From Raillietiella orientalis (taxonomy: Eukaryota): DNA of 64,000 nt. Made by a program: the position numbers and the translations under genes. The stretch spans positions 3,596,001 to 3,660,000 of the forward strand of contig JAYWIR010000009.1 of NCBI GenBank assembly GCA_036172245.1, in the 5' to 3' direction. This document shows, piece by piece, positions 6,300 through 64,000 of this stretch. Position 1 is the stretch's first letter. Every line of letters begins with the position of its first letter. The notes under the pieces were generated by a model. That model was not told where the DNA came from, searched no databases, and worked only from the letters and a program-made list of their open reading frames with translations.

Positions 6300-6896
6300 A
6301 GATACTGCTAGTGGTCTCTCTCGGTGGCTAGGAGCCAAGCAACGATGGAGCTCTACAGGAGCCAGTAATTTCATTATGGTACACCGAAAAAACATTAGGC
6401 AACTCATGGTTGCAACCGGTGTAGCCGTGACGCTTTCTGTATCCCATAGAGTGGGGTACAGAATGCGACCAGAGGACGTTGATCACCTAGTCCAAGCTGC
6501 AAACGGAATGGAATCTCGAGAGATTCCTCAGGGTTGCTGCGGTGGCAGGTACCAGAAGACCTCTGCCTACTCATTTCAATCCAGAAACCTGAGATGGACC
6601 GACCATTTCTTGTGCCGTGCCTTTCGATCCCTCTCGCTACCACAGAATTCAGCGGTCTTCCGACTCGCGCAGCCACAAGAACTCCATACACATGTGGCTT
6701 GCGAGCGGAGTCAACGTCTCAGGGAGTGACTACCTGCCGACGGCGATCGCGGCTCTTCGCCACCTACTGGAGACAAGAAGCGCAGCTGAAAAAGGACTGA
6801 GTGGAGGGTGCCCTTCTTTGCATTTGTTTTTTTTTCGCGCGTGTGTGTGTGTGTGTGTTTGTTTGCAATGAACGCCCCGGAGTGTCTGGGTTGTAA
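6300..6896 (+). mobile_element. Degenerate LINE 3' end terminating in the conserved hairpin motif
   Basis: Ends in AATGAACGCCCCGGAGTGTCTGGGTTGTAA (6867-6896), a variant of the terminus on other L1/Tx1-like relics. Preceded by LPTAIAALRHLLETR and a T/GT-rich UTR. The 5' limit is a guess. Confidence 0.45.
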
Positions 6897-7727
6897 CAGA
6901 AACAGAGCGGATGGGGAAGAATGGGGGCATATAAGGAGCTTTGCAGCTCCCCCTCGTACCCAAGTGTTTCTCCCTTTGTTGAGTTCCTTGCCATCCATCG
7001 AAGGTCTGCGATGAGTCTGCAGTCAACCTGCAACTGCAAATGCAGAGCGCTGGTTCAAAAATAACTCAAGGAGCAACGAGTCTGTCTTGACTTCCCGGTG
7101 ACCTCGAGCATTTCCGCCGCGCGCATGCCTCCATTATGACCAAGAAAGGTGTAGGGGGTGGGGAGGGCATCCCGGCACGCAGGGGATGCAGCGAGTCACA
7201 TGGAAAGCGCAGACGCGCGTTCGAAGCACCTGACAGAGAGGGAAAACTGGGGTTCGATCTGGAAGATCGGAATCGCATCGGGCAGTTGCAAAGGAGGAGT
7301 TCTCTTTGCACTGATGTCTGCGGGGTCCACCCAAGATGCCGGCAAACGTCTCCGTCCAGCGTTCCGGAGGAGCGGCGAAAAGTTTCGTGTGCTCACGAGG
7401 CCTGTTGAGGCCGTCGGGCCTGAACCCGGGTTCCCGGGAACGGCCTTGTCAACGGCAGCGGAGTCGGAGTGGAAGCAAGACAAAAGCGAGGATCATTCTA
7501 ACCTTTGATCCCAGACAACGGCAGCGGCTCCCACACGGGAAGTCCGCTGGTGGATAGCGGGTCTTCCGGGAACGGGAGGAACCTTTCGGGAGAATTCTGC
7601 TGGAGTCCTGCAAGACCTCCTCACACACCCCGTAGGGCTGAGCCCCCCAGCGGAATCCATTCCCTCCCTCCCTCCCTGCACCTCCCCGCCGGAAAGAATG
7701 TGTTTCCAGAAACTCGGAAAATCTTAC

Positions 7728-8018
7728 CATCCAGAACATGCACGTGCACCTGAGCAGCCTGCACGTAGGAGACGCAGCATGTGTAGAGGCCGCTGTCCTT
7801 CAGCTGGACGTTGTGCACCAGAATTCTGCCGATGTTCTCCTCCCTGTCGGTGATTATGGAGATGCCTCCTCTCGTGGCATTGACGAGATGGAGGTCGTTG
7901 TGGAACCACTGGATCTGTTCCTCCAGCGTCTGGACGTCTTCCAGTATGCACGTGAGGTTGAGGTTGCTGCCTATGCGCAGAAAGACTTCTTGGGATCCGA
8001 GGATGTGGGCGCGGCTGT
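7728..8018 (-). CDS. dpr-family Ig-superfamily protein, exon encoding the second Ig domain
   Basis: SRAHILGSQEVFLRIGSNLNLTCILED...IQWFHN...RGGISIITD...LVHNVQLKDSGLYTC...VHVHVLDG. Acceptor ccttccag and donor G|gtaag; 291 nt, phase 1 to phase 1. Confidence 0.92.
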
Positions 8019-8476
8019 CTGGAAGGATGTGCACTCAGCATGAGAAGATCGGGGTCAGAAGTGGCAGGAGAGAGGTCGCTGCATCGATCAGCGGCTGCGC
8101 AGGGTGGAGGAGAACCGAGCAGGAGGAAGGAAGGAGGTCATCCTGGCTCGCCTGCCGCCGAAAGACGAGGGGAAAAAAAACCAGGATTTTACCGCGGACC
8201 GCTGGCCTCGAGCGTCGAACTCTGGGCAGCCGGACCTCTCAAAGAACGGAGAGCGCCAATCGACTCCTCCCCCATGCGAAGGGAAGACAAAGGGAAGATT
8301 CTTCCTTGTTCCTTAACACAGAACAAAAGGGGGCGGAGGGAGGAAGGAACGATCGGCAGGAACGTCCGGCGACGATGAACCGCCGTCGCAGAGACTCCAG
8401 CACAGGCAAATGAAAAGAAGTGCACTGCACGTTAGAAGCCGCGTTTTCATTATCGGGGGTTTTGGTTGCCCGCGTT

Positions 8477-9175
8477 GGTGGTCCTGCACCTGCGGTCTCC
8501 GCGTGTGGTGCCAAGCGGCGCGGGTTCCAATCGCACCCAAAGGATCGACGCCAGAAAAATGAAGGGTGCGTCGTAGGTTTCGAGTGCCCTCCCCCCCGCA
8601 AGATGACAATGGTTGGCCTGAGGTCTTCTGGATGCCCCCTTTGACTAACCGGGATCGGAAGCTGACTCTCGGAGGTCCTTTTAGGAAGCAACGAGCGCCG
8701 GTTCCCTTCGGGGGTTGATTCCCTCCGGTTGTGAGGATAGAGTCATCCATCTCGTACCATGGAGTTGGTTAATTGACACTTCTCCAGAGTATCAAGAAGT
8801 GCGCTGCTCCCCCTTCAGAGAAATTGGGGAGCGGGCCTTCGGGGTTCTCTTCAGAGGAGGGAACAGGAGCGGATCCTTGTGGGGGGGGTCCCTCCAGAAA
8901 AGAAATTCCAGGAGTGAATCCTTTTCCGGGTTCCCTCCGGAGAAGAAACGAGAGGTCCCTCCAGAGAGAACAAGAAAGAGGTCATTCCAGGGCTCCCTTT
9001 CAGGAATACGAGGAAAAGACTTCTCCTTCCGAAGCCTTCCTAAATTCATAGGGTGGTCCCTCCAGGGTGACATCCTACAACTGGAAGGGTGACACGCACC
9101 CTCGGGTGGCGTGGACAGTGTTCAAGAGCTCCATGAGCCCCTATGGCGGACGGTTCCTTGATTGCTCAGCTGACC
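8477..9175 (+). mobile_element. tRNA-headed ~700-bp SINE-like repeat, copy A (in dpr intron)
   Basis: Head ...GCGGTCTCCGCGTGTGGTGCCAAGCGGCGCGGGTTCCAATC with a B-box-like motif. Body is homologous to the seven other copies (e.g. CCCTTCGGGG hairpins, TTCTCTTCAGAGGAG). Confidence 0.75.
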
Positions 9176-9474
9176 TGATGAGTGTGCTAAAAATAGGCGC
9201 TGATGAAGAGCGAGAGCACTTCCGCTTAAATGACCGTCCCTCGCGCCGTCGGACCTGGAATCGCGATCGTTTACTTCCGCCGAAAGAAACTGCACGGCGA
9301 TGCCATGACAACTGTTCCACGGAGGGTTCCCGAAGCGAGCCCAGTCATGGTGCATCCGCACGACCTTGGCTGTCGGCGACTTTACAGGGAGGCAGACAAG
9401 CCGATGAGACCCTCCCCTAGCATCCGCGGCGACCCCCAGCAACGGACAAAGGAGAGTTGGAGGCAGAAACTTAC

Positions 9475-9685
9475 GAAGCACGTAAAGGGAGAACAGGAGG
9501 CTGATCTTCGGCTCCGTGTTGATCTGGCACTCGTATTCCCCGGAATCCTCCACGGCGACCGAAGTTATCGTCAGCATATAGTCACCGGTCGTGCCGTCGA
9601 AGTGCGGATGGAACCGGGAGTTGAAGATGTACGTCAGCAGACCGTTGCTGAGGATGTGGAGATCTTTCTTGCGTATCCAGGACAC
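9475..9685 (-). CDS. dpr-family Ig-superfamily protein, exon encoding the C-terminal part of the first Ig domain
   Basis: VSWIRKKDLHILSNGLLTYIFNSRF...YMLTITSVAVEDSGEYECQINTEPKISLLFSLYVL is the dpr signature VSW.R..DLHIL....TY...RF...DSG.YECQ..TEPK. Acceptor ttccag, donor C|gtaagt; 211 nt, phase 0 to phase 1. Confidence 0.94.
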
Positions 9686-10983
9686 CTGGAACCACACGAA
9701 ACGGTCAGGTCTTGGTCGGCAACCGCTTCCCTCGCTACAGAGCGCCGACAACCAGCAAGCGGATCGAATTCGCGACGCCAGAAGATATTTTTGACCCGTG
9801 GAACGGAAATGACCGCTGGGTGCCACCTTTCCAAGGCCAGTCCTGCCTGCCTGTGTCGTGTTCGTATTCCCGGACGGTTGTCGAGCACATCGAGCGAAGC
9901 AACGGCGGGAAGGGGGGAAAGGAGCGGCCTTTGCCTCTCTCTCCTAGGAAAACCTTCATGTCTTGCTTCTCTTTGTTCTTTTTTTGGTTCATCGAGCGCA
10001 CTGCAGATTCCATGGCATCCTGATGTTCATTTAACATGAATTACAGCACATGGAGTTCCGATCGCCACACGCAGTTGCTCGAGGAGGCTGCGTCCCATCA
10101 CAGGACTCAATAAATCTCTGGGTTTTCCTTTCGAAGAAGCTTCGCCGTTGAGAGGATGACGTCACCACGACCGAGCGTTCCGCGCCGAACGCGATCGACG
10201 CTAATGATCGGCGGCACTTCCGTTTCCGAAAAGTTTCTCGAGATCGCCCCCTCCCTCCCCCTCTCCCGGGTTGTGCAGGTCGCGCGAAGCTCGCCGGAAG
10301 CCGGATACAGGAGATACGTGAGGCACGGCCTGGCCGTCTCAAACGGAAGCGCGAAAACAATTTGCTTGCCGGGAGCAAGAATCCCTTATCCCGAATGCTT
10401 TGATTTCCTCCCGTCCCCTCCCTCCCTTCCGTTTCGTTTGCAGGAAAGCGAGCACTTCCTGCCCGGTCCGAGGACTTCCCCGCCGTTTAACTCCGCTTGA
10501 AGGGGCCGAGGACTCAGCCCCCCCTGCGGCAGCGGTTCGCTCCCGTTTCCACGAGCTTCCAGCGGATTCTAAGCTGACCGACGAAGGGGACGAGTCCGCT
10601 CCCTGGGTCCTCCACATTAGGGAAAGCCGCGGGGGTCCCTCCAAAATCTGGGAGCGAAACGTCTGCGAGACCCGAACCTCGGTGCAGCGGAGGTGGCCGT
10701 CAGTTGGAGATGCTGGGCAACGCCCCTGCTCCACAGAGAAGCCGTGTTCCGGGAGCAAACATCCCTCGGGACGAACTCCGCGGGAGAGCCTCTCAGATCC
10801 ACCGACCCAACGGTTACCCTCCTGCGACCTCAGGACGACTGGCGCGAAGCAGCAATGAGAGTTCGAAGAGAACAGGGCATTCCGTGGAAGAGGAAAACGA
10901 GTCCAGGGAACGCGCCAAATAGTTCAAAGTGGAACAGCCATCGAAAATGAAACCTCACGCAATGCTGTCCACCTGGAAAGGAT

Positions 10984-11605
10984 GGCCCGCGCAGTTGGCC
11001 TCCGCGCACAGCGCCATAGCGTCGCGGGTTCGAATTTCTCCAGAGAAAGGATCGCTGCCGAGAAATGAAGGGTGCGTCGTGGGTTACGAGTCCTCCTGCA
11101 AGATGCCCCGTTGACTGTCCGAGGTTGGAAGTTAATCCTCTGGGTCCTTCCAGGAATCAAAGAGTCGTTCCCTTCGGGGTTACCCTCCGGTCGTGCAAAT
11201 GTGGCCATCAACCCCCGCTGAGGGGGACCCTTTATCGCATACCAGAGAGCTGGCTGATACCCCCCTCAGAGGGTTGCCTTTCCAGAGCATCAGAAGCGCG
11301 CTGCTCCTTAGGGGAGCGCTCTTCAGAGAAATCTGGAAGCGTCCCTTCGGGGTTCTATTCAGAGGACACAAGGAGCGATTCCCTTGCTGGGGCTCCCTCT
11401 GGAGAAGAAATAAGGAGTGTTCCCCTATGAGGAATTCCTTCAGAGACAACTAGGACGAGGGTTCCCCAACCAAGCGTAAGAGGAGCGGACTCCTTCCTCC
11501 GGAGCTTTCCTGGATTCATAGGGTGGTCCCTTTCCGGGGTTATTCTCTAACTGGAAGAGTGGGGGGAACAGTGTCGAAGCCTCGAGCCTCGGCGAACGAC
11601 CTTTG
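10984..11605 (+). mobile_element. tRNA-headed SINE-like repeat, copy B
   Basis: GGGTTCGAATT B-box at ~11026, then GGGTGCGTCGTGGGTT and a body collinear with copies A, C, E and H. Confidence 0.75.
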
Positions 11606-17309: not shown

Positions 17310-18362
17310 GCTGCACAGTGTCTGCACTGATCAGGGGGAACACCTGGACCTTTTGCCGCTCCAGGAACAGTCGCGTCTGGTTGCAGGAAACGGTTCGCAC
17401 GTGGTTGAAGACCAACGAGCCGAGCGCGGAGTCACGGCAGTGATTCCTTGTACAACGGCTGCTCGCTCCAGGGGACTTTCGCGCATCCCACCCGCGTGGA
17501 CAGAAAGAACCTCCCTGGGCGCGGCGCTGCCCTCCTTGAGGGAGCACATGGGAAGCTTCAGGTTGAGGACGCTAGGTGGTCGGACCACGGGCTAGCTGCA
17601 GACGCTGCGACACCAAGTGCCCTACCTAAAGGACTTTTGCTCTGGGGTGAGCGGCTGGCAATTCTTCGGGAAGATCTCATGTGACTCACAGTGTTCTTAA
17701 ACAGTTGCACCCTCTCTCTCAAGTTAAGCAGGAATCGGCGTTTCTGCTGCTGCACCGGAGCCTCCTATGCAGACACTGCATGGGACCCGGATGGGGGGGA
17801 TCCAAACTGCGGCAGGTGAGGGAACGCGAATCCCTCGTGCACCTGCTCGTGGGCTGCTCGTTGCCCTGCTATCGTTTCGGGGACGCTTTACAGCGACGAC
17901 CCTCCTGACCTCACGCGGCAACCCTGGGGACGCACGGAAACTCTGTCTTCGTGAGCGACTCATTGCTGCCAGCCGCGTCCCTTCCAGCTCTTTGCTGCCC
18001 TACGCGGGCGGCCTAGAGCGACGTCAGAGGAGGAAGCTGTGCTAGGAACGCCATCCACTTCGCCCTACGTTTTCTTGTGGAGGACGACGAGACGACCCTA
18101 CCTGAAGAAAACAGGAGAAGAACTTGCCGGCATCCTGGAGAGGATGCAGAGGACGACCCCCAGCAGGCTGTGATCCCTTCCCGCGCCCTCAAAATTCATT
18201 TTATTGATACTTATATTTTGTTTTGTTCCGTGCCTTCCCCTCTGCTGTCGAGGCGATCCTCCCCGGTCTGCGCATCGGGTTTTCGGCACTGTACGGTCAG
18301 TGGTCCCACACACCCTTTGTACCGTTCATTTCAATAAATGCGTAGGCGAACCCGAGTGAAAA
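17310..18362 (+). mobile_element. 5'-truncated L1/Tx1-like LINE (post-RT region, zinc finger, 3' UTR)
   Basis: ALIRGNTWTFC..VWLQETVRTW matches ALVRGNPWISC..TWLQESVSSW at 53.4 kb, and ERESLVHLLVGC is a zf-RVT-like motif. Ends with a degenerate AATAAA-hairpin terminus at 18333-18362. Confidence 0.75.
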
Positions 18363-23735: not shown

Positions 23736-24027
23736 GCCCTATAAACAGTTCCTGAATGCAGCAGTGACGTCAACACTGAAAAGAGGACGGTCCGTAGCGA
23801 GGGAACACGTGGTCGTAAAAATAAACTGCAACTTTTAAACAGAAATCGGATTCCCCGTAATCAAAAGTTCATGTTCTCAACGCTAAGTTCAGGTGCTGCT
23901 CCACGAGAGCAGCGCTCGTGTTCTGTGGACGACGACAGCGCCGACTGCTTCGAAAAATCGGTGGAAATTTCGCCATCCGTCATTAAACGATGACGCATTT
24001 ACAATCCGCTCTCCGGAGGTGCGGTTT

Positions 24028-24325
24028 CGCGGCGCCACGTCGGAATTCGCGATCAGCATGGCGCCCAACAATGCAATCTAAAAATACACGGAGAGCGACC
24101 CTTCAAACAGTCCTGTCTCGAGAGCGGGCCCGCGGCGCCACGTCGGAATTCGCGATCAGCATGGCGCCCAACAATGCAATCTAAAAATACACGGAGAGCG
24201 ACCCTTCAAACAGTCCTGTCTCGAGAGCGGGCCCGCGGCGCCACGTCGGAATTCGCGATCAGCATGGCGCCCAACAATGCAATCTAAAAATACACGGAGA
24301 GCGACCCTTCAAACAGTCCTGTCTC
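24028..24325. repeat. Perfect tandem repeat, 103-bp unit x 2.9
   Basis: Unit starts CGCGGCGCCACGTCGGAATTC at 24028, 24131 and 24234. Copies are identical and have no spacers. Confidence 0.95.
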
Positions 24326-25720
24326 AGTCCGGCCTTGCAGAGAAACGCAGCGAGGCTTGAGGCGGGCTGGTTTAAAGTGACTCGCCCGCATGTTGTTACA
24401 AAGTCAGAAGCCGAAATGATTTGCAAATGGTTAAAGGGAGCAGCGTGTCCCATTTCTTTCGAATACCCAACCTCTCCTTCGAATCTTCCTGATGTTGCAG
24501 ACGACGTTTGGAGAAAGGTGCGCTGGAGGAGATTTATGAAACCTGCTGACAACAGAGTTCCCCAATCGGAACGTAGGAATGTCAGTGGGGAAAATTAAAT
24601 CCCGATGGATCACAGTCGAACGGGAAATTCTCTCGAAAAGAGTGCTGCTATCCGGAGCTGTTCCTTGTTTTCGGATGCGGGTTTCACACAATGAGCCATC
24701 GTGTTTAATGGATCGCGGTAAGGATCTGTTTCAAATTGCGAAATGAATTCCGACGGAATAAATTTCGGGTGAATTTTTGTGGCACGAACAGTTCCCTCTC
24801 ATTCCAATAAAATCTTCATTTGGTTAAGAATGTCATCAGTAAGGAAATGTCGGAGCCAAAATCAGACAGAGATGTAAGCTCCAAACATGCAAACGCATCC
24901 AGCTCGTGAGGACCGAAAGGAAACGACCGGATTCATCCCGCAGCATCAGTACCCTTGCAGTTTGCTGTGGTCGCTTCCTCTCGGAGAATCGACCGGAATT
25001 CACTCGGGAGAGTGCTGGTTGGCACAGGATTAAATGGTGACAGTTGAACCCGCAGAGTCGTCGTAGTCCTAATCATGTGCTCACATAATCATGTGCTCGA
25101 TAATCATCTCATTCCCTCTAGAAACTACTCGGATTCCTAGGCTCTGAAGGTTGCGTTGCTTTCACGCATTCCAAGGAAAGAAGTCGCGATGATTAATGGT
25201 TTCACTCGTGCACTGCTGGTAATTATACGATGGTCACCGCATCATAGAAGCTGCTTTCCTTTTATGGACGTGGAATTGCTTCAAAACATGTCGGTTTTCC
25301 CATTCCTCTTAGATTGATACTTTCCTCCGCATCCTCTACATGACAACAAGTTCCTTCGAAAGACGGAGCTGGTCTCATTCTGCAGCACCGATTGACCAAA
25401 AACAAGAAGCTCATAATAAGTCATTGTCCCTCTTGAAAATTTTCAAGCGAATTGTTTTTCTTCGTCTCTGGATGTAGCGGGGACGCAAAGTGAAGTACTC
25501 ATTTGCGATCCATTGTCCGAAAGATTAAGAAGCGAACGAATAAAAGCCAGCATCCTCTTTTACGTCGATGTATGGTCGTGGAGCAAAGCACAGGAAACAG
25601 GATTCGCCATATATATTTTTTGTCTGTGTGTTTTTTTTTTCCTTCTTTTTTTAAAAAAAGCTACTTTTATCTTTTTGCTATGTCAAGAGACAGTGGCTTG
25701 CGAGCCACACGGTTCGACTT

Positions 25721-25757
25721 AGCAATAAACGCCCCGGCGCACCCGGGTGAGAAGAAG
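25721..25757 (+). mobile_element. 37-bp retro-insertion consisting only of the LINE 3' hairpin terminus, with an 11-bp TSD
   Basis: CGGTTCGACTT (25710-25720) + AGCAATAAACGCCCCGGCGCACCCGGGTGAGAAGAAG + CGGTTCGACTT (25758-25768). Confidence 0.85.
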
Positions 25758-36749: not shown

Positions 36750-39347
36750 CAATCATCTCTTCGCGGTTCGCGTTCCGGACCTGCACAGAACGGAACCAGA
36801 AATTCAGGCGCTCCGAGATGGTCGCTCGCAAGTTCGGGGTCGTGTCCCCGACCATGCCAAAGAGATGTCTTGGCCAGCCCCTGCGTTTGAGTTAAGGAGC
36901 CACCGCGGCACGCGCTACAGAAGGATGGGGGACGAATCTTGCACCCGCAAACCATCCCCTCGCCTGCTCGCGCTCACTAATCGCGCGGTGGAGTGAGGAG
37001 AGGTCCCTTAGCAACGGGATCTCAAGAGATCATCCCGATGGTGGGTCAGCTCTCCTGGGTGCCTTTTCACACTTGCCCTGGGCCCGTCCGTTCGTCTGAC
37101 CTCGAGTTCTTCCGCTGCCTCTCTGCGGCATTGACTCCGATCGCCAACTCTCAGAGCGATCATTTTGGGATCGAATCTCTGACCCGGGACAGTCGTACCA
37201 TCACACCGTATTGCCACGAAGACTGCTGGAGCTGCCGGAGGCGCAGCTCCACAGGACGGAAGCGAGGGTCACGGAACTGCTCGTGAGGACGGACGAAGCG
37301 GAAGGCGACCTGGCGGCGTGCGAGCAAGCTCGAGCCGAGGCCATGACCGGGGAGGAGACTGTGCTCCGAGGAAGATCGAGCTGCTGCTGGAGCTCGCCGC
37401 CGACACGTGACTCTCCACGGTTCGAACCCGGGCCCTTGGCCCCCAGCGCCGCCCCGAGGGAGGAACTCGGGAATGATGGGAGTAAGGGGCGACTACCTCC
37501 TCCTTGGCAGAAAAAGTACTTTGGAGAGGTCAGTCGGAGAAGTCCGCCTTGTGAGTTGGATCTGGCCAGAGTCCGCAAAAAAGTGCTCCCTCGAAAGAAT
37601 CCCGGCTTCTTCCGTTCGGTCCGCGCAGCCTGGATGGTTCCTCCTCAATCATCGATGAAGCGCAGCCTTCGCTGAGGAATCCCCAGACGCAATGAAACGA
37701 GCGCAAACCATCGGCATTAAAGGGGAGAGCTTCATTCCCAGAGTCTCGACGGGAATCCGGATGGGCGCAATCGCTCACACTGGTCCTCCTCCACCATGGA
37801 GACAGAAGGAAATTTGTATCCGCAGCTACACCCACTCGCTCCTGAGGTTGTTTACCATCCACGCGCGACGCTCTGTGTGGAAAACAAAACCCCGTGAGGG
37901 CACCTCGTCATCACCCATTTTCACTCTGGAGGTAAGGAGCACGCGCGTCGTAGGGATACTCCAGAGACTGCTCCTGTACGTGCACCACCATCTTCACCTG
38001 CAAGCTGACGAAGTCGACGCTTTGAGACGACAGACCGTGCCCGCAGGCGGAGACGTCTACGCCGAGCTACGAACCCACTTTCTTTCAGTGCGCCTGATCC
38101 TTCGGAGATGCGCCAGCAGCGAAGGAGTGCTCCCATTGCCGCTGAGCTCCCAGTGCAGGATGTGGGGATTTGGTTTCCCAGCTCGCAACCGTCCTGGAAA
38201 CTCCCGTCCGTTGATCTCCTGTCTCCCGAAGAATTTCAACGCCTGGAAGCGGGAGGCTGTTGCCTCCTGCCCACTAAGCAGCGCTCCCGGAGGAGCTTTG
38301 TCACTTCCTCAGACATCCGCTGGAAGCGGTGATGGAAGACTCGACGAAGTGGCCGACCCTGGCCCCAGACCCCTTGCCACGGCGCTGTCTGCCCTGAGGG
38401 CAAGCGACGACAGCTGCCAGTCGACGGGTAGGGAGTTTTCCTGCACCCGTTGCAGGGAACTCCTTGGCGGCTGAAAGGCGCTCGAGGTGCGGCCACCCCG
38501 CATGCTCTGGAGATGGAACTACGTCAGCACGGTGTCGGCCTTCGGGAACCCGTCCCTCCCACGACACGAATTCGTGTTACCTCCCTCATTCTGGAATACG
38601 TTGGTGTTCCCGCTTTGATGGAAACGCGAGGTGCCCCTTTTTTGCTCTGGGACTTCGTCTCCAAGGTGAGTCCGATCCCCAAACTGTTGATTCCAGGTGC
38701 GGGTCGGCGGAGTTCGATCCGGCGCCCGCCTTTCGACTGCGGTCATCTCGGCAGACCATGGTGAAGACTGAACTTAGGCGCTTCAGCAACAGGAGGACAC
38801 TGTCCTTGACCTCCCGCAGCGGTTCTTCGCGCGCGGGGCGGTGGACTTTTCGACTGGAGCAGCGATCGCGACGGCGCGCTGCGTCCACGTCGTCGTCACA
38901 ACCCGCCATGCGTCAGAGTCTCGGGCGCAGCGAAGGGAGGTCACCGTGACGGCAGTCGCTCATAGGAGAACGGCGGCGAGTTAATCCCATCTGAAGAAGG
39001 AGTGAGGACGGTGATCGCTGGCATGGAACATCAGTTCTGAAGAAGAGCGGCCGACACCGGTGACCCTTGTCCCCAGATTCCACGTTTATTCACTTTGTTT
39101 TTTGTTTTTTATTGTCCCCTCCCTTTCGCTTCTTTCCCGATTTTTTCGTTTATCAACAAGCGACACCAAACACCCCTGTGCGGTCCCTTCCGTGTTCCCA
39201 CATTTACTTCTCATCCCCTCCCTCCCGCTCCGGACATTCAGTGTGCCGACGGACTTTCCCTGGACTTCGTTCGCCTTCGGTCGGGAACCGCGTGCTCCGC
39301 GTGCTGGTTTTTCTGGAAGAAACGCCCGGGCGTGAGCGGGTGGAAAA
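36750..39347 (+). mobile_element. Internally deleted L1/Tx1-like LINE ORF2 relic
   Basis: SDH motif of an AP-endonuclease C-terminus (~37155) and an RT-like IGIKGESFIPRVSTGIRMG (~37710). The post-RT segment is homologous to 44280-44420. Ends in AAACGCCCGGGCGTGAGCGGGTGGAAAA (39320-39347). Confidence 0.6.
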
Positions 39348-43185: not shown

Positions 43186-43862
43186 TTTTTTTTTGGTTCG
43201 GCAAGTGCTGAAGAAACGCCCGCCTATTTAGGGGGAAACTCACGAAGCTCTTGATGCACCGCTTGCGCCACCCGGGAGGGGAGGGCGTGAAGTAACTCTT
43301 CAAGATGCGGGGTACCACAGAGGGACCACCCTGTGAATCCAGAAGCCTTTTCCTCTTACTCTTGAAAGAGGACCCCGGAAGGAGCCTCTTCCTCGTTCCC
43401 TCCGGAGGGGGAGCACTCCTCGTTTCTCCTCCGGAGGGAACCCGCAAGGGAACACCGCTCCTTGCATCCTCCTCTGAAGAGAACCCTGAAGGGATGCTTC
43501 CCAATTTCTCTCGAGGGCACGCTCCCCGAAGGGGAGCAGAGAGCTTCTTACATTCTGGAGAAGTATCGACCAGCTCCGTCGAACGCCTCGAAGGGTCGCC
43601 CCTTGAGGGAAGGAGGCAACTCCTTGGCTTCTGGAAGACCCCGGAGGGACAACTTCCAATCCCGGTCAGTCAACGGGGGCATCTGATTTTTCACCAGTGC
43701 CCCACCCGATTAAGGGCCCACCAGCGGAATAGGGGGAGCACGGCTCGAAACCCACAACGCACCTTCTCAATGTGTCGCCGTTGATCCCTCCCTGGGCGTG
43801 ATTCGAACCCGCGACTCTCTCGCTGGTGCCATGGGTGGAGGCCGCAGCCACACGGCCGCAAG
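43186..43862 (-). mobile_element. tRNA-headed SINE-like repeat, copy E
   Basis: Reverse complement GCGGCCGTGTGGCTGCGGCCTCC...GCGGGTTCGAATCAC. Ends CAGCACTTGCCGAACC followed by an A-run. Confidence 0.8.
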
Positions 43863-43922
43863 GCGGGGGGAACGATTTTCGGGCTCGCAGACGAGCACTG
43901 CTCGTGGCTTGATCTCGAGACA

Positions 43923-45600
43923 GCATCGAGCTGCAGGTGCAGTTTCGGATGCTGCGGCTCTGTGCCAAGCTCTGGTGTACGCCGTGGTGCTTGCCCGCGC
44001 GCCTTCTACTAAGGCGCTGCACGGGCAGCAAAGGACTCCTTTCGTTGCTGCCCCACTTTCGGCACACCAGGAAAGGGTTTTGCTTCCCGCTGAGGCAGCT
44101 GTCCTCACTGCTGGAAGTCCAAAGTTGGATCTCCTGCCGCCCCATGAACAGTAATGCATGGCGGCAGGAATCTTTTGCATCGTGGGCCGCTTCCGAAGCA
44201 ATGCACCCGGAGGATCTTCGATGCTTGAGACTTCTCTTGATTCATCCCCTGGACGAAGTCATGCAGGACAAGAAGAAGTCGGATCGTCTGGCCGCCACAC
44301 CCCTCACCGCAGCGCTGTCTGCCCTCAGGGCAAGCAGTGACAGTTGCCAACCGGCGGAATGGGAGTTCTCCTGCACAATTGCAGGAGTGTCTAAGCTCCT
44401 CGGCGGCTGGACCACAAAGGAGCCGGTGGAAGCCGCCACTCTTCGGAATCGGGCAAAGGACCTGCTTCGGTGGAGCGAACATTTAAGTGTGCCCCCAGAA
44501 GAGATAGTGGCTGCCCCCGTTTGTTTGGACAGCTCCGTGTTCCCCTTGAAATGGAAACAAGATGTGAAGTCTTCACACTGGGGTTTCCATTATAATCGGC
44601 GGCGAAGCATCGTTTCCGGGGGAGCTGTCTCGTGAAGCTGTTCGAGATGCGGAGAGATCGAGTCTTTTCTGCACCTCTTGCTGGACTGCGGTGATCTCCG
44701 TGAACTGTGGCGGAGGCTGATTTCGGCCATCATGCCGCAGGCACTGCAATGGACGTGCTGCGGCACTTCTTCAGTAGGAACGGACTTTCGGTAGGCGTGA
44801 TCGTCGCACCCATATGTTGCATTCGCGCCATCGTCAAGGCCCGCTACGCCCGGGAGTTGTCAGCGCAGCGAAGGGAGGCCCACCTGCTAGCAGTCGAATC
44901 CATGGAGAGGGCCTAAAGGTGGTCTCATATTCATGACGAGGTGAATGAGAATATCGATATCGCCGGCATCCATCGCCAGTACACAGACGTCTAAGAACGG
45001 TGTACTCCGGTGACCCTGTGATCTCTCGCCCACCTATGTCCCATTCCCGTTCGCTCCGTTGAATTCTCGATGCCAGTGTTTGCATCCCGGTGCCTTCCGG
45101 AGCGATCCCAAAGACCCTTGTCCCGTCTCACCCTAGGTTATGTTTTTCTTTTGTTTTTTTGTTTGTTCTTTCCAATCCCTAACACCGTTGCGTTTGTAAT
45201 GTGATTGCTGTGTTAATGAGTGTGGTTGTGTTTATGGGAGGGTATGGGTTGGAAATGGGAAGATGGTTAATGTTTTTTAGCTTGGGTGGATTACTCGTGG
45301 AGTGTATAAGGTTCATCCTGCTATTGGTCCTTTTGAGTATAGATACTGAGTAGTAGTATAGAGAAGGATGGGGGCTGTAGTCAAAAATTAAACTTAGAAT
45401 TTATTTAGTTAATAATAAAAATATTTTACGAATACATTTTCCCCAATTAATTAATTTTAATATTTTTCCGGCCTGTGTGCCAGGGGAATTCTGCCTCATT
45501 CTTCTCCAGTCGTCGGTTGGAAACTTTGTTCCCAACTGGTTTATTTTATGTAATGTATATGTTTACATGGAATAAACGCCCCGGCGTGACCGGGTGAGAA
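43923..45600 (+). mobile_element. 5'-truncated L1/Tx1-like LINE with 3' UTR and hairpin terminus
   Basis: ORF 43937-44635 (LLRWSEHLSVPPEEI...FPLKWKQ..HWG) is homologous to 53145-53984. RCGEIESFLHLLLDC zinc finger at ~44645; terminus at 45571-45600. Possible imperfect TSD ATCTCGAGACA/ATCGCGAGACA. Confidence 0.8.
45205..45415 (-). pseudogene. cox1: Probable degenerate mitochondrial cox1 fragment (NUMT)
   Basis: AT-rich island. With the invertebrate mitochondrial code the minus strand gives, across frameshifts, FWLQPPSFSMLLLS (from 45386), AGWTLYTP (~45320), LTIF and MNTTTLIN. This is collinear with COX1 FWLLPPSL.LLL / GTGWTVYPP / DL.IFSL / INFITTIIN. Confidence 0.55.
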
Positions 45601-51532: not shown

Positions 51533-51578
<46 letters not shown>

Positions 51579-51592: not shown

Positions 51593-53069
51593 AAACGCAA
51601 CAGCATGCACTTTCGTCCCAAAGTTGGAATCATAATTACCGTCCTGCGGGCCCATAGCTCTCAAGTATCCCGAGCACAAAACGAAGGAGATGCAGCATTC
51701 GAAAGTGAGGACGTTATAAAGACGCATTCCATAGTTGCTTTCTTGGGTTGCAGCACACGCAATACGTGCACTCCCGAGGCTGCGGGACAACTAACACGGG
51801 GGCCAGCCAATTTCTTCACCAACTCCCGGAATTGGGATTCACGCAACTCCTTTATTACGGCATCGGACTTTGTGCGGCGCTCGGAACAAACCCAACGTTC
51901 CCTAATAGGACGCGTTGCCAGGAGTGGGGGAATGGGAAAAAACACAGCGTGGATGCGAAATGAAGTCGCCGATTATTTGCGATGGGAAAGTACCTGCGTT
52001 TCGGATAAGGGTTTTTTTTTTTTTTTTTTTGGGGTGTGTGTGTGTGTGTGTGTGTGCATGGGAGGAGGGAAGGGAGGGCAGGGGCATGGAGGACTCTGAC
52101 GTTATTTGTTTCTGCGAGCTTTCGTATTTGCTGCAAGATGTAAAAATGGGATCACGGAAAAATGAGCCTGACTTCCTCGACGGGAAGCAGGATGCAAAAA
52201 AAAAAGGAAAGAAAGAAAATAACTGGGGCAGGCATGGGTTTCCAATCGCTGTCTATAACGAAGGGAATTCCGTGTCCCTTTAAATTCGGGATTGGGATAG
52301 AATCGATTTCGACCTGCGGCTGAGATAGCCGCTTGAAGTGAGCTGCTCGGATGCAGGCGCGTCCGCAGGTTCTCACCAAAGCAGAAGAGGAGGACCTCAT
52401 CTGCTGATAAAACTGCCATGCAAGGAAACGGCATCGGCAATTATCTGCAATAACACGAAAGACATGTCCAGGATATCTGCTAGTGGGGGGAGGGAAAAAA
52501 ATCGAGAAAAAAAAAACGTCCGGGCATTGCCTGCCTGCGATCCCATGATGCAGGACGGGAAAATGTGATCGCAGCAAAAGGAAGCGTCACTTTCGATGGG
52601 AAAAGAAGGGAACATCTCTTGGGCCAACTCGGATGCCGGTAGCTATTATGGATAGACGTGAGAGGTCCTCTGAATGTGCAGCGGATATGGAATCGATCTC
52701 AACGCATGAGCGGCGATTGCTTAGGCCTAGATGGCTGGATGCAGGCAGCTGCACCTCTTCGTGTGCTCACTGAATGAATATCAGGAGGTCAACCTTATGC
52801 CGCACATAGTCAGGTGGTGAGCGTGCTGCCTTAGGAATCAACTTCGCCACCTGCTTGCATCCGCTTCTTGAAAACTAAGGAAAGCATCAAAACTTCGTTC
52901 CTCAGGGCATTGCTCTTCCTCTGGCGGCTTTCAAAGTCCGAGGAGGTATGCGGGAAAAGGAAAAGGAGAAAAAGGGGGAGGAGGGAGGGAAACGCCGTCA
53001 GCCTACAGCGCGACTTCAAGTAACCCCCTAAGGCACTTCCTACGCCAACCATTAGAAGTGGTAATGCAG

Positions 53070-54530
53070 GACAAGGCAAAGCGGTCGACCCGACAATTCT
53101 AAGCCATTTGGGGCAACCGGAGGTCCCGCGTCCGACTTAAAGACTTGTGCGCTCCGCGCAGGGACGGTGGACTTGGTCTCCTGACGTTGGAGCGCATGGA
53201 ACGTCAGATCCGGATTCGGAAAATTGCCCTTGTGGCAAAACACTGGAATGCACCATGGTGTGCGCCCACACGACACCTCGCCCACAGGGCAACCGGCTGC
53301 TACGGATTGATCTCAATCCTAGCGGCTAACGATCGTAGTCTGAACCATTGTGGCTTTCAGCTACGGGACTTGGTTGCCCTGGTGAGGGGCAACCCGTGGA
53401 TCTCCTGCATCCCCGCGAACTGGACTACCTGGCTCCAGGAGTCCGTTTCCTCGTGGGCAAAGATCAACGGCTCCAGCGATGTGGACTTCTCCTGCCTCCG
53501 TCGAGGCAGGAACGCTGGCCAGCCCCTGCAGGAGATCGTTTCCAACCCACGGAAACTTCTGTGGCCTTCTATCACCCCCTTTGCCCCCGTGCTGCCCTCC
53601 CTCAGAGAAGCCAGGGACAGCCAAGAGGAGGCATCGTGGGAAGTGTCCTGCCTCATCGGAAGCAGGAACAAACCAATAAAGGCGTGGACGTCCCGGGAGC
53701 TAGCGGACGCTACAACCCCGAGTGTCCTGCCGAATGGACTTGTGCGCTGGGGCGAGCTGCTCGATGTGCCTCCGGAGGAGGTGAAGTGGCCCTCAGCGTC
53801 TTGGGACAACGGCACCCTCCCCCTGCAGTGGCAGGAGACGGCGTTGCTTCTGCTCCATTGGGGATTTCTAAGCAGAGCACTCCTTGTCTCACTGGACTTT
53901 AGGGAGCGTGGATGCCTATTGTGCAGAGTGCAGGGAAAGGGAGACCTTCCCTCACTTAATCATAGAGTGTGTTGCCCTCCGTAGGATGTGGGATCGACTC
54001 TCGTCGGCCCTAAACGTTCCAGTGGGCGACCCTAAAAACATTTTCGTCGCCTCCTGATGCGGAACTCCCTGCCAGGTGCCGCGTGTGTTGCAGTTCTCTG
54101 CTGCATACGCGGAATTTCGGACAAGTGGACCGCGTCAAGAAGAGGCCGCAGGAGTCGGAACGCCATCCACTGGGCAGTCATCTCCATGGAGAAGGCTTCC
54201 CGTTGGCGCCGACTTAGACAGCATATGCCGGCACTTGTTCGCATCCAAAACCGGAAGTAGAGACCTCCTCACGGCGCACCGTGATCCCTTCCCTTCCCTC
54301 CCCTCCCCATAAACATTGTTCCCCAGGCATTTTTGGTTTTTTTGTTTTTCTCTTTTTCCCGTCCCCTTCGCCAGTGGAGAGGACCTTACCGGCATGCGGG
54401 TCGGAAAGGACGAGTGCTCAAGACAGTCAGAACAATGTGTTCAACGCAGCTCCATCAGACAAGACTTTATTATGAAATTCATAATTGTAAAATTTTAATA
54501 ATAAAAGCCCCGGCTTACCCGGGTGAAAAA
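53070..54530 (+). mobile_element. 5'-truncated L1/Tx1-like LINE (post-RT region to 3' end)
   Basis: WGNRRSRVRLKDLCAPRRDGGLGL is the L1-clade LC.PK..GGLG motif; CLLCRVQGKGDLPSL is a zinc-finger remnant. Terminus AATAAAAGCCCCGGCTTACCCGGGTGAAAAA at 54500-54530. Confidence 0.85.
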
Positions 54531-56810: not shown

Positions 56811-57738
56811 GGAAAGATGGCAGTCTGCTGGTACCGGCGCTTCCGCCTGCACATGGCAGTGCGGACAGCGTGGCAAGCTCTTCCGATGGAAGTCCAGAGG
56901 AAGGAACAGTGGACCTGTAGACGGTGCTGCACACTTGCGGAGTCGGGAAGCAGGGAGGAAAGTCCAGGAACCGGGCTGCCTGCTCTTTGTGACCTCAGAA
57001 CTCGATGCGTTTCTGGGGAGGAGTTAGACCAGCCACCAGGTTCCAGGGCTCAAGGCGCACTCGCCTCGGACCGGCGCGAGTGAATCCCTAGGGCTTTCCA
57101 GGAAAGTCCCACTGCCTCGGAATCGCCTCCCAGAATCCTCCAGGTGCCATTGAAAGACGGGTGGATCGATATCCTGAGTCAGTTAATTTCGAGATCATGC
57201 GGAAAGCTTGCCCCTGGAACGAAACCTGCCGCCAGCGTGAGGGGATCCCCTTTCCTGGAGGAAAACTGGCATCCTGGTTTAAATTTACGAGTCACGTTGT
57301 GACTTGGCAACAATGAAATATCGAAGATTAAGCGCGCGCAGACTGCGGCGGGTCCGATCCACGGCAGCGGCGCGAACGTTCTGCTGCTGGAAGGGTCGCT
57401 TTGCATTCCAGGCGAGGAAGCTGGGAGATGATGGATGAGCAGACGCAACAGCGCTTTTTTTTTCTGGGACCCGGCGCTTTCTTCCCTCCCTTTCTTTCCT
57501 CTTCTCCCTCCTCCTCCTCCTCCATTTCCTCGTTACATGCTGGGATTGCATGGGCTTTCAAATCGATCTTGTCCCGTGTTCTTGTTTGTTTCCCGGCTGT
57601 TCCCGACTTCCTAGGTGCCAGCCCTTTCCCGCGCTCGGCTTTGGCTGCTGCCCGGCGCTGACCTGTTGCGGGGGTCGATTCAGTGGGCGTTCCGGAAGCA
57701 CAGAGGACCAACTGTCCAAGAGCCAAGCGAGCCCGCTT

Positions 57739-60285
57739 TGGCGGTCGTGTGGCTGCGGTCTCCGCACCTGTCGCCAAGCGCTGCGGGTTCGAATCCCACC
57801 CGGGGAACAGTCGGCTCCGGGAGATGGGTTCCGAGTCCCGCCAGCTAGATCATGCTGGTTGGCCTCTTCGGGTGCGGCACTGGTGGACCCCCGGTCACGC
57901 CGGGGAGTTTATTGATATAAAAATAAACATACACGTCTGTGGCAGAACGCTCGATCCTGCCACGTTACTTATAAATACGGGAAGGAACCTGCCGAGAACT
58001 GACACGCAGGCCAGCAGGGCCGCCTCGGCAGCACAGGACAAGGGAAAACAAACAAAAGGGAAAACAAGTCAAACAAAAAACATCCAGTTGGAAAAGGGGG
58101 GGAGATGGGGTGATCGGGAAGGGATCACTGTGTGCTGAATGGTGTCCTCCGCATCCTTGTAAGGATGGCGGCAAGTTCCTGTTTTATGGGGCCACCCAGA
58201 TGGGGCCACCTTGACGCTGTCCTCATGAACATCAGAATGAACATGAAAATACATGGCATCCCTGTCGTCGTGGCCTCCTCTGGCGTTGCTCCATGCAGCC
58301 ACGGTCCTGCCACGTGGGAAGCACAGTGCTGCTGGAGATGCGGCCGGCGTGAGGGGGTCGCGCAGGAAGAGGCGCCTTCCAACGTCTCGGGCGTTGCCAC
58401 CGGCGGTTCCAAGGGTCGCGGGAAAGTGTCTCCAAAGCAGTCGAAGGGCAACACAGTTCATTAGGAGGTGCGGGAGGGATTCCCGCTCCCCGCACCTGGC
58501 ACAGTTCGCGTCCACCCCTCCCTCCCGTGTCCAATGATGCCGGCGGGCGTCGCACGCGAGGACCCCGTGCAGCAGCATCAACGCCGACTCCTGCCACTTC
58601 GAGGGGAGAGTACGGGTGTTCGTGAGAGCCGGGGGCCGCTGCAGTTCTTTTTCCGGAATACCCAGTTGCACGCCCCAGCGCAAAAGTCCACGAGATCGAG
58701 CACTCGAGGCTGCAGCGTCGGCGAGTGGCCCGTTTCCTAGTCCTTTTCTTCTTCCAGAGATTTCCTCAGTGACCTCCCATCTAACTGTAAGGCTGCTGCC
58801 CACGTGCTCCCTAAGGGAGGATTGCGCAGCGGCGAGGGGAGTTCTGCTTACCCACGCACTCTCTCCACGGGATCTTCCAGGATCTCCCGGAGCGTGCAGT
58901 TTTTGTTGCGCCTGGAAAACGTCGCACCTGTTCCGCGCTTGGCTCCTGGATCCCCGCCCACGTGCGAACGGTTCTCTGAGACCATGCACCACCGTTCGCG
59001 GGACGGCACGAGATGCATCCGTTTTTCCTGGCCAGCGTGGCCACCTGCCGCCGGTGCAGTCCGCAGTGGATGAGAATGCGTGGACGGCGCGCAAGGAACT
59101 ACGCGAGTCCCACGCTGCTGGTGGCTTGCTGGACGAGAAGACGTGCAGGTTGGCGCCAGCTGGCGCTCCAGAGCTTTTCCTCAAGGACAAGCGTCCGAAA
59201 TAGGAGCTGCAGCTCCATTAGCTCCCGCGACAGAAGGCCTAGGCCGCCGTCCCGGCGCGGAGCACACAAGTCCTTCAGGTGGACTCGGGACCTCCCTTTG
59301 TCCCAGAGGGTGATCTGGGGGATGTCCTTTGTCCGCTTCTTGATGCTGCATGGCGGTGGGCAAACAAAAGCAAGAGGCGGAGGAGGGGGAACACAAACGT
59401 GTTCGACACCGCGGCCCGCCCCGACAGGTAAAACCTGCCTCTTTGGAACTGGCCTCGTGCCTCGTGCCGCAATGGTGGAAACCGGAGAACTACGGATGCC
59501 CCCGTTGACTCTCTGGAATTGGAACTGGACAATCCGGGGTCCTTGCAGGAAGATGGTTCCCTTCCGGTTGTTAATATGAAATCGGCCTTTCCTCCCAGTG
59601 GGGCGACCCTCCGCCACGTAACATGAAGCTGGTTGATACCACCTCAGGGATGGCCTCTCCTCCAGAGGAATCGGGAAGCGTCCCTTCGGGGTTTTCTTTA
59701 GAGGAGGAAACCAGGGGCGGTTGGTTGCCTTGAGGGTTTTCTTCAGAGAGGAAACGAGAAGTGGATTTATCCTTATGACGGGCCCCTCCAGAGTGAATAA
59801 GGAAGAGGAGGTTTATCCCTTCGGAGACAACCAGGGCAAAAGTTCCCTCAGGGACTCCCTGTCAAGAGTGACAGGAGTCTTCAGGAAGCACAAGCAGTCC
59901 TAAGATGCACACGTGTGCAGGTCCCAGGACATGCGTTGCTGCGCCCGAAGACGTCCTGGGGTGGTAACCCTGCAGGTGGTACTACGTGACTCCGAGAAGT
60001 GGCCACGCGCCATCGCCGCAGCTGCTGCCTTCCCCACGAGGGCGTCGCGACAGTAGGGGTGGCTGGGGTCGCTGAACGCATCGGCAGCCGCTCAGCTCGA
60101 GAACTTTCCAGACGACGCGATGCTAAGCGCTTGCGCCTGTTCCTTCCTCAGGAGTCCCTCCTGGGTTCATGTAGTGACCCTTCCAGGGTCACACGCGCCC
60201 TCAGATGGCGTAAACAGCATCAAAGAGCTTCGTGAGTCCTTCCTAAAGAGAAGAGCGGTTCTTCAACATTTGGCGGACCAAGAGC
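57739..60285 (+). mobile_element. tRNA-headed SINE-like repeat, copy G, split into three parts (57739-57887, 59464-59878, ~60139-60285)
   Basis: Head with GGGTTCGAATCCC at ~57785. The body resumes collinearly after the LINE insertion and again after a ~260-bp LINE-derived segment. Confidence 0.7.
57888..59463 (-). mobile_element. 5'-truncated L1/Tx1-like LINE inserted into SINE-like copy G, with a ~16-bp TSD
   Basis: LWDKGRSRVHLKDLCAPRRDGGLGL and CARCGERESLPHLLMNC. Terminus AATAAACTCCCCGGCGTGACCGGGG on the minus strand (57888-57913). Flanks are GTGCGGCACTGGTGGA (57872-57887) and GTGCCGCAATGGTGGA (59464-59479). Confidence 0.85.
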
Positions 60286-62212: not shown

Positions 62213-62870
62213 GAGGCCGTGTGGTTACAGTGGTCTCCGTGCGTGGCACCATGCATCGTGGGTTCGAATACTCCGAAGGAATCGACGCAGTGTGTCGTGA
62301 GTTCCAAGTTCACCCAATAAGATCACGCTGGTTGGCCTACATTCATCCGGTTGCGGCACCGGTAGCGGTTGAAACCGGATGCCCCCGTAGAGGGCCGGGA
62401 CAAATGAGAGTCGATCTCTGGATCCTTCCAGGAATCAAGGAGTGGGGAGTTCCCCCTCCGGTTGTGAAGGAGCGGACCCCTATTCCGGGGGGACCCTGAG
62501 CGTCGTACTGATGGAGTAAGTCTGTCGCCACCACCTCTCCAGAGACTGCAGAGAAGCGAGCCGATCCCTTCGGGGAATCTGCGTCCTTCAGAGGAGCAAA
62601 AACAGGAGCGAATATCTTGTGGGAGATCGCTCCGGAGAAGAAATTCCAAGATCAGATCCTTTCCGGGTTTCCTTCAGAGAAGAAAGAATGGAGCTGAACC
62701 CCCGGGCGTGCTCCGGAAAGAATAAGGAAGGAGATTCCCTTCTGGATTCCCCTTCGGAGACAACCAGGGTGGTGATCTCCATTTCCAGGGATCCCTCCCC
62801 AGGTGTGAGAATAACGGACTCCAAGTCCTTCCATTCATAGGGCAAACCCCTCCCGGGTACCCCTATCTTA
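62213..62870 (+). mobile_element. tRNA-headed SINE-like repeat, copy H
   Basis: GGCCGTGTGGTTACAGTGGTCTCCGTGCGTGGCACC...GGGTTCGAATAC head, with CCCTTCGGGG and CCTTCGGAGACAACC in the body. Confidence 0.75.
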
Positions 62871-62874
62871 AAGA

Positions 62875-64000
62875 ATTATCGACGCGTACCAAATGGGAAT
62901 GAAGTCAGCTTCGTCGGGAGACGTCAGCGTGAAACACCAGCAGCGAGGAATCGATCTTTCTGGATGGGATACAGCCTCCGGAAGGTCGGCAGCGTGATAT
63001 CACTGAACGTCTTTGTCCTTTCAGCAAGCCTGTGGAACCCGTCGCGCGGGCATCCAGTGTGCTTTGTGGAAAGCAGCGGTGGAGACGAAGCCAGGTTTCT
63101 TACCAGAGCCAGTTGCCATTGGTTACGAACGCAGGGGCGATATCTGTTCCCTCAGGCACTTCCAGGTTTCCTTCACCGTGGCAGGAATGGGTAAATCCAT
63201 AAGGCTGGAGGTGGAGGCGCACGTGCGCGGGTCCCAGAACATGCCTTGTTCCTACCGAGGACGCCCCGGGGTCGTCCCCCTGAAGGAGGTACGACGTGAT
63301 CCCGAGAAATGGCCACAGATACTATAAAGGTTTTCTTCGGAAGAATAAACGCCCGGCGCACAAATAAACGCCCCGGGTGAGAATCGAGAAGTGGCCACGT
63401 GCCACCGCCGCAGTGCTGCCTTCCCCGCGGGGGCGTCGTGGCAGTCGCGGTGGCAGGAGGTGCTGAACCCACCGGCAGCCGCTCAGCCTGAGAACTTTCC
63501 GGGAGACGCGACCTGAAGTGCTCGCGCCCAACGACCGGCAGGCCAACCTGTCACGCCCGTGGACAACCCCGGGCTCCCCAGCCCCTCCAGACGGCGAAAC
63601 GCGGCAACGCCTCTGCTCCCGAGCTGCCGGCTCCTCCGCGGCGGATGGCAACGGGCGGCAGAGGCCCTCCGACCGCTGCCCCCGGCAGCTCCCTGCGGCG
63701 ATTCCTCCGCGCCGCAAGAGGGGAGCCACCACGGGGCCGCTGGCCATCCCGCGCTGAGCCATCGCGTGGGGTCAGCTGCAGCACCAGAGGACCATCCCGC
63801 TCCCTCCGCGTCGAGGGAAGAGGCGCCTGCCTCCCCGGATAACAAGGAAGATGCCGTCCGTCTCGCAGGCGCTCTCTGAGAAAGGCGTGGGGTGGTCGCC
63901 CCCGTGACCTACTCCTCCGTTTCCATTTTCGTGGGTCTTTTTCTTCAAGCGCCTTCTCCCGGTGGTCTCCTGTGTACATGTACAGCTCGTACTCGTACAT
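62875..64000 (+). mobile_element. Decayed L1/Tx1-like ORF2 post-RT region, running off the window end
   Basis: SLRKVGSVISLNVFVLSASLW and IQCALWK resemble the L1-clade LS..GR..L.N..VLS / FLW region. Homologous to 59900-60135. Confidence 0.5.
63317..63384 (+). mobile_element. 68-bp retro-insertion of the LINE 3' hairpin terminus, with a 14-bp TSD
   Basis: CGAGAAATGGCCAC (63303-63316) and CGAGAAGTGGCCAC (63385-63398) flank the insert. The homologous empty site is at 59993-60006. Confidence 0.8.

Follow-up and report, generated by a model that had tools for sequence, protein, structure and literature searches.

A hairpin motif at the tail-less 3' ends of an L1-group LINE lineage in Raillietiella orientalis

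The terminal motif in the 64-kb window

The window analysed here, a 64-kb stretch of the Raillietiella orientalis genome, contains decayed long interspersed nuclear elements (LINEs) and several copies of a ~30-nt motif in which AATAAA is followed by a GC-rich hairpin and a short terminus. As judged from sequence, it probably serves a deep lineage of L1-group LINEs as the signal for their 3' end. A sequence-only reading of the window had listed eight motif sites, and all eight are present. A search with the pattern AATAAA-NN-CCCCGG-N5-CCGGGTG-NN-AA, allowing up to 5 mismatches, gave 8 window matches against a mean of 0.15 in 20 shuffles; these are seven of the listed sites and a degenerate, unlisted copy at 364. 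The fixed-length pattern misses the site at 63344 because the motif is duplicated internally there, with a second AATAAA at 63363. The relevant features include relics of the second open reading frame (ORF2), 3' untranslated region (UTR) remnants and a short interspersed element (SINE):

364..393 (+): ninth, degenerate terminal motif, absent from the earlier list; 4 mismatches to the pattern
6867..6896 (+): terminal motif in degenerate form, closing a short piece of 3' UTR that holds a (TG)n run; no trace of ORF2 within 1.6 kb
17318..18223 (+): decayed C-terminal ORF2 relic (tblastn, best E 2e-19)
18333..18362 (+): degenerate terminal motif with a broken stem (pattern match, folding)
25724..25753 (+): perfect terminal motif with loop CGCAC, closing a short piece of 3' UTR; no trace of ORF2 within 1.6 kb
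38061..39002 (+): decayed C-terminal ORF2 relic (tblastn E 7e-22)
39317..39346 (+): degenerate terminal motif (pattern match)
43340..43875 (-): the SINE uninterrupted, i.e. the empty target site of family W, without the motif
43886..44991 (+): C-terminal ORF2 relic with 72-84% identity to family C, of which L073 (1201 residues) is one of the intact copies
45571..45600 (+): perfect terminal motif, loop CGTGA
52998..54272 (+): C-terminal ORF2 relic (tblastn E 1e-72)
54500..54529 (+): perfect terminal motif, loop CTTAC, end TGAAAA
57732..57883 (+): left part of the same SINE, with a tRNA-like head, into which a W copy is inserted antisense; the SINE continues with its right part near 59487
57884..57913 (-): terminal motif closing the W copy, with 2 mismatches, at the junction with the SINE site CCAGTGCC
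57999..58014 (-): upstream 3' UTR hairpin of the W copy, with a CUGCGU hexaloop, 90 nt 5' of AATAAA
58072..59454 (-): family W relic of the ORF2 C-terminus, which matches zf-RVT weakly
63302..63398 (+): 5'-truncated and very short insertion that comprises 27 nt of UTR and the duplicated motif (63344-63383), read from the sequence

The motif had been described as capping LINE relics. A same-strand ORF2 relic lies upstream at five of the eight sites (18333, 39317, 45571, 54500 and 57913), and none was detected within 1.6 kb of those at 6867, 25724 and 63344, which look like short 3' UTR remnants. The insertion at 63302..63398 sits between 15-nt direct repeats matching at 13 of 15 positions. The further claim, that in the best copies the stem is kept while the loop varies, holds across the lineage, in which the stem is identical in 12 of 12 families of at least three copies. 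The 18333 copy, listed as degenerate, no longer folds (-1.7 kcal/mol). The possibility that the W-copy motif at 57884 is a truncated end was ruled out, as comparison with other W copies identifies it as a mutated full end. Among 187 window reading frames of at least 120 residues, Pfam found no reverse transcriptase (RT) domain, only immunoglobulin (Ig) domains and the weak zf-RVT match; the window gave no ARAGORN tRNA match and no Rfam match, the tRNA-like head of the SINE having been judged by eye. The Ig-domain exons look dpr-like, which makes an arthropod host probable. Additionally, the W insertion with its SINE flank (58072-59217) has a 98% identical inverted duplicate ~27 kb away (C9:3681481-3682584), which suggests a local segmental duplication.

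Position and fixity of the genomic 3' ends

Across the genome (210 Mb), the pattern with at most one mismatch gave 2187 matches and its reversed control none, while exact CCCGG-N5-CCGGGT-NNN-AA ends numbered 2457 against 3 in the reversed control. The loop and end letters track the LINE family. The last six letters of 174 sampled ends are mostly TGAAAA (47), TGATAA (36), TGAGAA (23), TGACAA (21) and TGTCAA (13); this variability means that GAGAA, which the sequence-only reading took as conserved and which closes TGAGAA at only three of the eight window sites, is not the conserved part, the common end being T-(G)-N-N-A-A. The preferential position at LINE 3' ends is confirmed by 40 loci chosen by protein similarity alone, 37 of which carry the motif at the expected place.

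Target-site duplications (TSDs) of at least 11 bp were found at 40 of 170 sampled ends of this type, hereafter type I, versus 8 of 168 in a control window. They begin exactly after ...GGGT-NNN-AA in 24 of the 40 and one base earlier in 10, all at an ambiguous A, so that 34 of 40 lie at offset 0 or -1 in a sample that is biased to well-preserved copies, takes 4 of its 40 TSDs from one site-specific family and leaves many 5' ends beyond the fetched flanks. The motif is thus the element's own 3' terminus. The TSDs are mostly 11-17 bp long and the inserts range from ~50 nt to 5.9 kb; the variable TSDs and 5' truncation of the L1 clade are therefore present. The genomic 3' poly(A) of canonical relaxed (mammalian-type) L1s is lacking, as only 3 of the 2457 exact ends carry at least 7 A. 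These three copies have A10, A11 and A13 joined at the terminus, one of them with an 11-bp TSD. By comparison, an A run of at least 8 lies within 900 nt after ORF2 in 17 of 33 complete L1/Tx1 relatives from metagenomes.

A sister clade of the same genome, type II, ends in AATAAA-N4-CCCCA-CC[C/G]-N5-[G/C]GG-AC(T)-TGGGG-AAA (231 matches, control 0), which forms a bulged CCCCA...TGGGG stem with a pentaloop (e.g. L091:1501-1537, L095:1501-1536). No type II end occurs in the 64-kb window, and none of 41 sampled type II ends has 8 or more A. In viral contigs the motif had no match, 80 metagenome L1/Tx1 loci gave one weak type II-like match only, and 596 Gb of prokaryote genomes gave 39 motif matches, none with ORF2 similarity.

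Carrier elements, their ORF2 proteins and target sites

Intact genomic copies consist of a zinc-knuckle ORF1, an ORF2 of ~1200 residues (APE endonuclease, RT and C-terminal CCHC), a 3' UTR of ~190-330 nt and the motif, which is the broad L1-clade layout of ORF1 followed by an APE-RT-CCHC ORF2. The intact ORF2s span 1150-1227 residues with PF03372 (scanned in three type II ORF2s) and PF00078, and both types retain the catalytic GDFN/SDH and the C-terminal Cys/His residues. PF00098 was found in two of four scanned ORF1s and a CCHC pattern in most, in keeping with the zinc-knuckle ORF1 of the Tx1 group. Type I ORF2s are 33-70% identical among families that share the terminal stem. The closest solved protein to ORF2 is human L1 ORF2p (3e-45; R2, 2e-13), and named database relatives are at most about 38% identical. 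Two unnamed JGI proteins, P0226 and P0242, are 69% identical to type I ORF2s; judged by this similarity, the type I lineage is also present in a metagenome collection.

To place the carriers we used an IQ-TREE RT tree of 64 rows picked from 135, with near-duplicates and two mis-cut rows among those omitted. The motif-bearing families form one clade (100/100), whose sister is the type II clade (99/95), and both fall within a group of 54 rows that includes L1/Tx1-type matches from vertebrates, ticks, plants and fungi (99/90). The proposed L1/Tx1 membership thus stands for the L1 group, on which the tree and the best match to human L1 ORF2p agree. The Tx1 part is left undecided by the tree, in which the lineage sits at an unresolved fork, because branches are long, R2 is the sole named outgroup and no named Tx1, CR1, L2, RTE or I row is included. 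The sequence data support the carriers as a long-branched, deep L1-group lineage.

Several other observations concern these elements and their relatives. The full-length copies L078, L081 and L085 begin with a common GGACGTGT/AGACGTGT stretch, which we take to resemble the downstream promoter element of insect LINEs. Loci L051-L064 (contigs C150, C71, C139, C26 and C189) are nested or tandem LINE arrays with ~5.5-5.9 kb spacing on small contigs, possibly heterochromatic or centromeric. Loci L069 and L070 hold tandem clusters of RT elements that group with R2-like rows.

The ORF2 proteins of both types are shortened in two places. The endonuclease span between two conserved aspartates is 39-43 residues in eight of these ORF2s versus 45-95 (median 63) in 109 relatives, and the linker span is 145-147 versus a median of 183 in 94 relatives, with P0018 as short. 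When 98 further proteins were measured more loosely the outcome was similar, as one linker and a few endonuclease spans were short; P0273, like P0018, has a linker as short as those of the two types. Relative to human ORF2p, types I and II both lack ~20 residues around the betaB6-betaB5 targeting loop of the endonuclease and ~38 residues of the long linker helices (e.g. L073:1883-5485(-), L057:3291-6971(-) and six more ORF2s). Deletion of the betaB6-betaB5 loop in human L1 lowers activity and changes specificity (PMC1950540; here and below, literature statements follow the accessible portions of the cited papers). The linker gap lies just after the region that corresponds to the PABPC-binding element of human ORF2p, residues 272-297 (PMC7617806). 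An AlphaFold model superposes on human ORF2p (PDB 8uw3, 9k6g), the best solved relative by sequence and fold, with Z 24.5 and a root-mean-square deviation of 2.9 over 299 aligned residues; with a predicted local distance difference test score below 50 at 288-336, the model is unreliable in the shortened linker and we make no structural claim there. The link between these deletions and the tail-less end is a correlation on a single branch.

The A-rich TSD start that canonical L1s derive from a TTTT/A nick is not seen. Instead the TSD starts are family-specific: ACA, ATCTC, ATTTCAAT, TGGAGATTCC, TCGAA and CCAGTGCC. An A precedes the nick in 10 of 34 cases and the TSDs do not start with A-runs; hence there is no sign in these junctions of priming by poly(A):T pairing. 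C occupies position -2 in 22 of 34 cases, where G never occurs, and position +1 in 24 of 34. Pairing with the RNA does not reach position -2.

Some families have one fixed site. The same SINE site follows, in antisense, 24 of the 37 motif-bearing loci picked by protein (family W, as at window 57884; L121-L160). Family C70 is inserted in sense within the endonuclease of a relative, at its catalytic GDFN codons (L078:8173 onward; one locus, blastx), and families H and C are inserted antisense adjoining endonuclease-coding sequence (one locus each, blastx). The target-specific insertion of the Tx1 group is thus present in W, H, C70 and C, while the other families are dispersed. Crocodilian Tx1-Mar and target-specific Tx1 elements (Kojima 2015, PMC4494074) likewise have a zinc-knuckle ORF1, an APE-RT ORF2, fixed sites in other elements and TSD-separated tandem copies. 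They differ in that the present families hit a SINE and the regions of sister LINEs that code for endonuclease, and in that the Tx1-Mar-linked SINEU have poly(A) tails; as noted, the tree holds no named Tx1 row.

A candidate mechanism and its alternatives

With modest confidence, we favour the reading that the element RNA is polyadenylated after the hairpin and that ORF2p uses the hairpin to start copying at a fixed register two A's into the tail. An RNA polymerase II transcript would be cleaved and polyadenylated just past the hairpin, by means of AAUAAA and an upstream UGUA/U-rich stretch. ORF2p would then bind a structured 3' UTR, in which a covarying CUGCGN hexaloop hairpin precedes the terminal pentaloop hairpin. 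The latter may act as a ruler, such that target-primed reverse transcription starts 6 nt past the stem and about two A's are copied. The junction is fixed, and we infer that the start needs no pairing of poly(A) to a T-rich primer. Finally, the protein itself would pick the DNA site from the sequence on either side of the nick, with a loose preference in some families and a single exact site in others, which could give rise to the observed preferences.

Polyadenylation of the RNA is probable, as suggested by the three A10-13 copies and the upstream UGUA. The element ends 24 nt 3' of AATAAA; cleavage usually occurs at a distance of 10-30 nt, and CFIm favours sites with UGUA upstream (PMC7614891). 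In 9 of 12 families a TGTA is found no more than 60 nt upstream, versus 1 of 12 in a control interval further up. The statement that the motif stands instead of a poly(A) tail is therefore true of the DNA copies and probably not of the RNA. The conserved structured 3' tail of stringent LINEs is also present; the upstream hairpin and the type II end covary, the terminal stem of type I does not. The CUGCGN hexaloop hairpin occurs at 80 of 174 type I ends versus 2 of 167 in the control, mostly 65-105 nt upstream, and its pair 1 covaries (C:G 53, T:A 20, G:C 5). The closing pair of type II is C:G in 184 of 193 and G:C in 29 of 32 (the 32 counted by eye from the list). As read from such pair changes, the evidence for structure is the type II swap together with the upstream hexaloop hairpin. 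A further hairpin, between the end of the element and the first base of the TSD, was dropped after inspection by eye, since it is not general.

A number of points weigh against this reading. The expected covariation of the type I stem is absent at family level, and genome-wide its closing pair has 7 double changes, 2 of them paired. Pair 3 has 50, in which the T:A swaps fit CpG decay on both arms and were set aside as such. Active families keep both CpGs, which argues that the type I stem may be read as sequence rather than structure, and intact window 30-mers are no more stable when folded than shuffled ones (z about -0.9 to -1.1). A single ancestral event may account for the type II swap, and the pairs of the hexaloop hairpin were counted only in hairpins preselected for four pairs. 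The evidence from type II duplications is thin, with a detectable TSD in 6 of 41 ends and scattered offsets. The UGUA counts stem from related, hence not independent, families and a U-rich region, and RT slippage, untemplated addition or homopolymer expansion could also produce the A10-13 copies. The WDxxK end of the PABPC-binding element is retained, as in human ORF2p. No partner SINE sharing the tail was found, no genome-wide SINE survey having been made; the window SINE does not end in the motif, and ORF2-less motif copies are short truncations where checked.

A fuller scenario we put forward only tentatively and consider rather doubtful. In it, a rebuilt ORF2p, having lost the targeting-loop region and half of the linker helices, would start two to three A's into a poly(A) tail that it ignores, at a point measured by the hairpin and without RNA-primer pairing. 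The sister clades would keep AAUAAA, a GC stem, a pentaloop and A2-3 in different sequence, and each family would find its own site, up to one exact SINE site or rival-endonuclease-codon site, without the known loop.

The alternative that survives best, although we judge it unlikely, is that the RNA carries no tail at all. It would end in ...NNAA, protected by the hairpin as in histone mRNAs, with RT starting at the last base and AAUAAA serving for cleavage only or as part of an ORF2p binding site. The 2454 of 2457 exact ends with fewer than 7 A, and an end fixed to the base, are what this would predict. It must, however, face the three A10-13 copies at exactly this site, one with a TSD, a canonical AAUAAA spacing with UGUA upstream, and the lack of any Rfam match, hence of a histone stem-loop match.

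Ranked below it, and improbable in our view, is a hairpin that acts in 3' end formation only, setting the cleavage site independently of flanking DNA. Template choice would then fall to the hexaloop hairpin or to cis preference, and RT would start near the tail junction for another reason. The terminal stem is the same in all families and thus cannot distinguish them, while the upstream hairpin varies; moreover, the poly(A)-tailed metagenome relatives L228 and L231 have a hairpin between AATAAA and the tail (A8-14). This account leaves the uncopied tail unexplained, given the A runs in 17 of 33 relatives from other organisms.

Still less probable is that the RNA reads a few bases into the donor's target sequence, so that this added stretch anneals to the nicked strand, which would set both the junction and the family preference and compensate for the shortened endonuclease loop. 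The family-specific TSD starts and the ~20 missing residues of the loop region would suit it, RNA-target annealing has been proposed for SART1 (PMC7265360), and among five junctions offset by 1-2 nt the family letter stands on the 3' side in all three that allow a judgement. The preference at -2 nevertheless lies outside any RNA-primer duplex, 5 offset junctions in 40 are no more than point mutation could yield, and the A-tailed copies have no extension.

That the motif is a pre-existing genomic target has next to no chance, had nothing in its favour and is ruled out by TSD position, because TSDs begin after the motif, the 5' duplicates of TSD-bearing copies follow unrelated sequence and the empty SINE site is motif-free, and the loop and end letters, moreover, follow the LINE family.

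We return to the favoured reading, of a hairpin-set start within a poly(A) tail, and compare it with known systems. The contrast with poly(A)-ended, loosely recognising L1s is weaker than the sequence-only reading stated, given Ohshima 2012 (PMC3472496). There the monocot '1a' L1 lineage (LINE1-1_ZM with ZmSINE2/3) has a 3' hairpin that is conserved and covaries, and L1 families without a 3' repeat number 9 of 233 in plants and 5 of 15 in algae. Like '1a' and Chlamydomonas L1-1_CR (PMC3472496, PMC3747384), the present lineage is an L1-clade LINE with a conserved 3' hairpin end that is read as stringent recognition. In those systems, however, the stem covaries, partner SINEs exist and L1-1_CR ends in poly(A), whereas here the stem sequence is invariant and directly 3' of AATAAA, the junction lies two A's in, and the host is an animal. 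In the L2-clade UnaL2 and ZfL2-1/2 (PMC4176376, PMC3747384) a small 3' stem-loop is the proposed handle for ORF2p; binding has been demonstrated for ZfL2 (PMC4176376) and in ZfL2/UnaL2 maps between endonuclease and RT, the region remodelled in the Raillietiella orientalis ORF2s. These elements belong to another clade, and UnaL2 ends in TGTAA repeats, while here there is no terminal repeat and TSDs are 11-17 bp. For human L1 a 3' UTR stem-loop has been proposed (PMC5135761), but that element primes within poly(A) at T-rich nicks (PMC7617806, PMC1950540).

The lineage thus appears to work like a stringent LINE and belongs to the broad L1 group, but it is not a canonical poly(A) L1. An enzyme that decides by a hairpin where copying starts, as the data suggest, would use a strategy known in other LINEs and unusual for L1 relatives. 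Since 3' stem-loops, tail-less L1s and targeting of other elements are already known, the surprise is limited; a literature search that did not cover Repbase and most subscription papers found no publication on this terminus. It is an open question how L1-type enzymes shift from poly(A)-based to structure-based template choice or back (PMC4176376, PMC3472496), and to it the lineage brings intact frames, an end signal of 30 nt, a junction exact to the base, a sister clade whose hairpin differs and two trait-associated protein deletions. Additionally, a small 3' tag giving tail-less, fixed junctions at family-specific sites would be of interest for LINE-based insertion tools.

Three minor observations concern the window and a metagenome locus. 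The metagenome locus L169 has an end with a short A run, adjoining what is presumably the 5' end of a U1 small nuclear RNA. Window positions 24021-24329 hold three tandem 103-nt repeats that are 93-97% identical. Finally, 7624-8034 and 9125-9943 (-) are exons of an Ig-domain host gene, which we take to resemble the dpr family.

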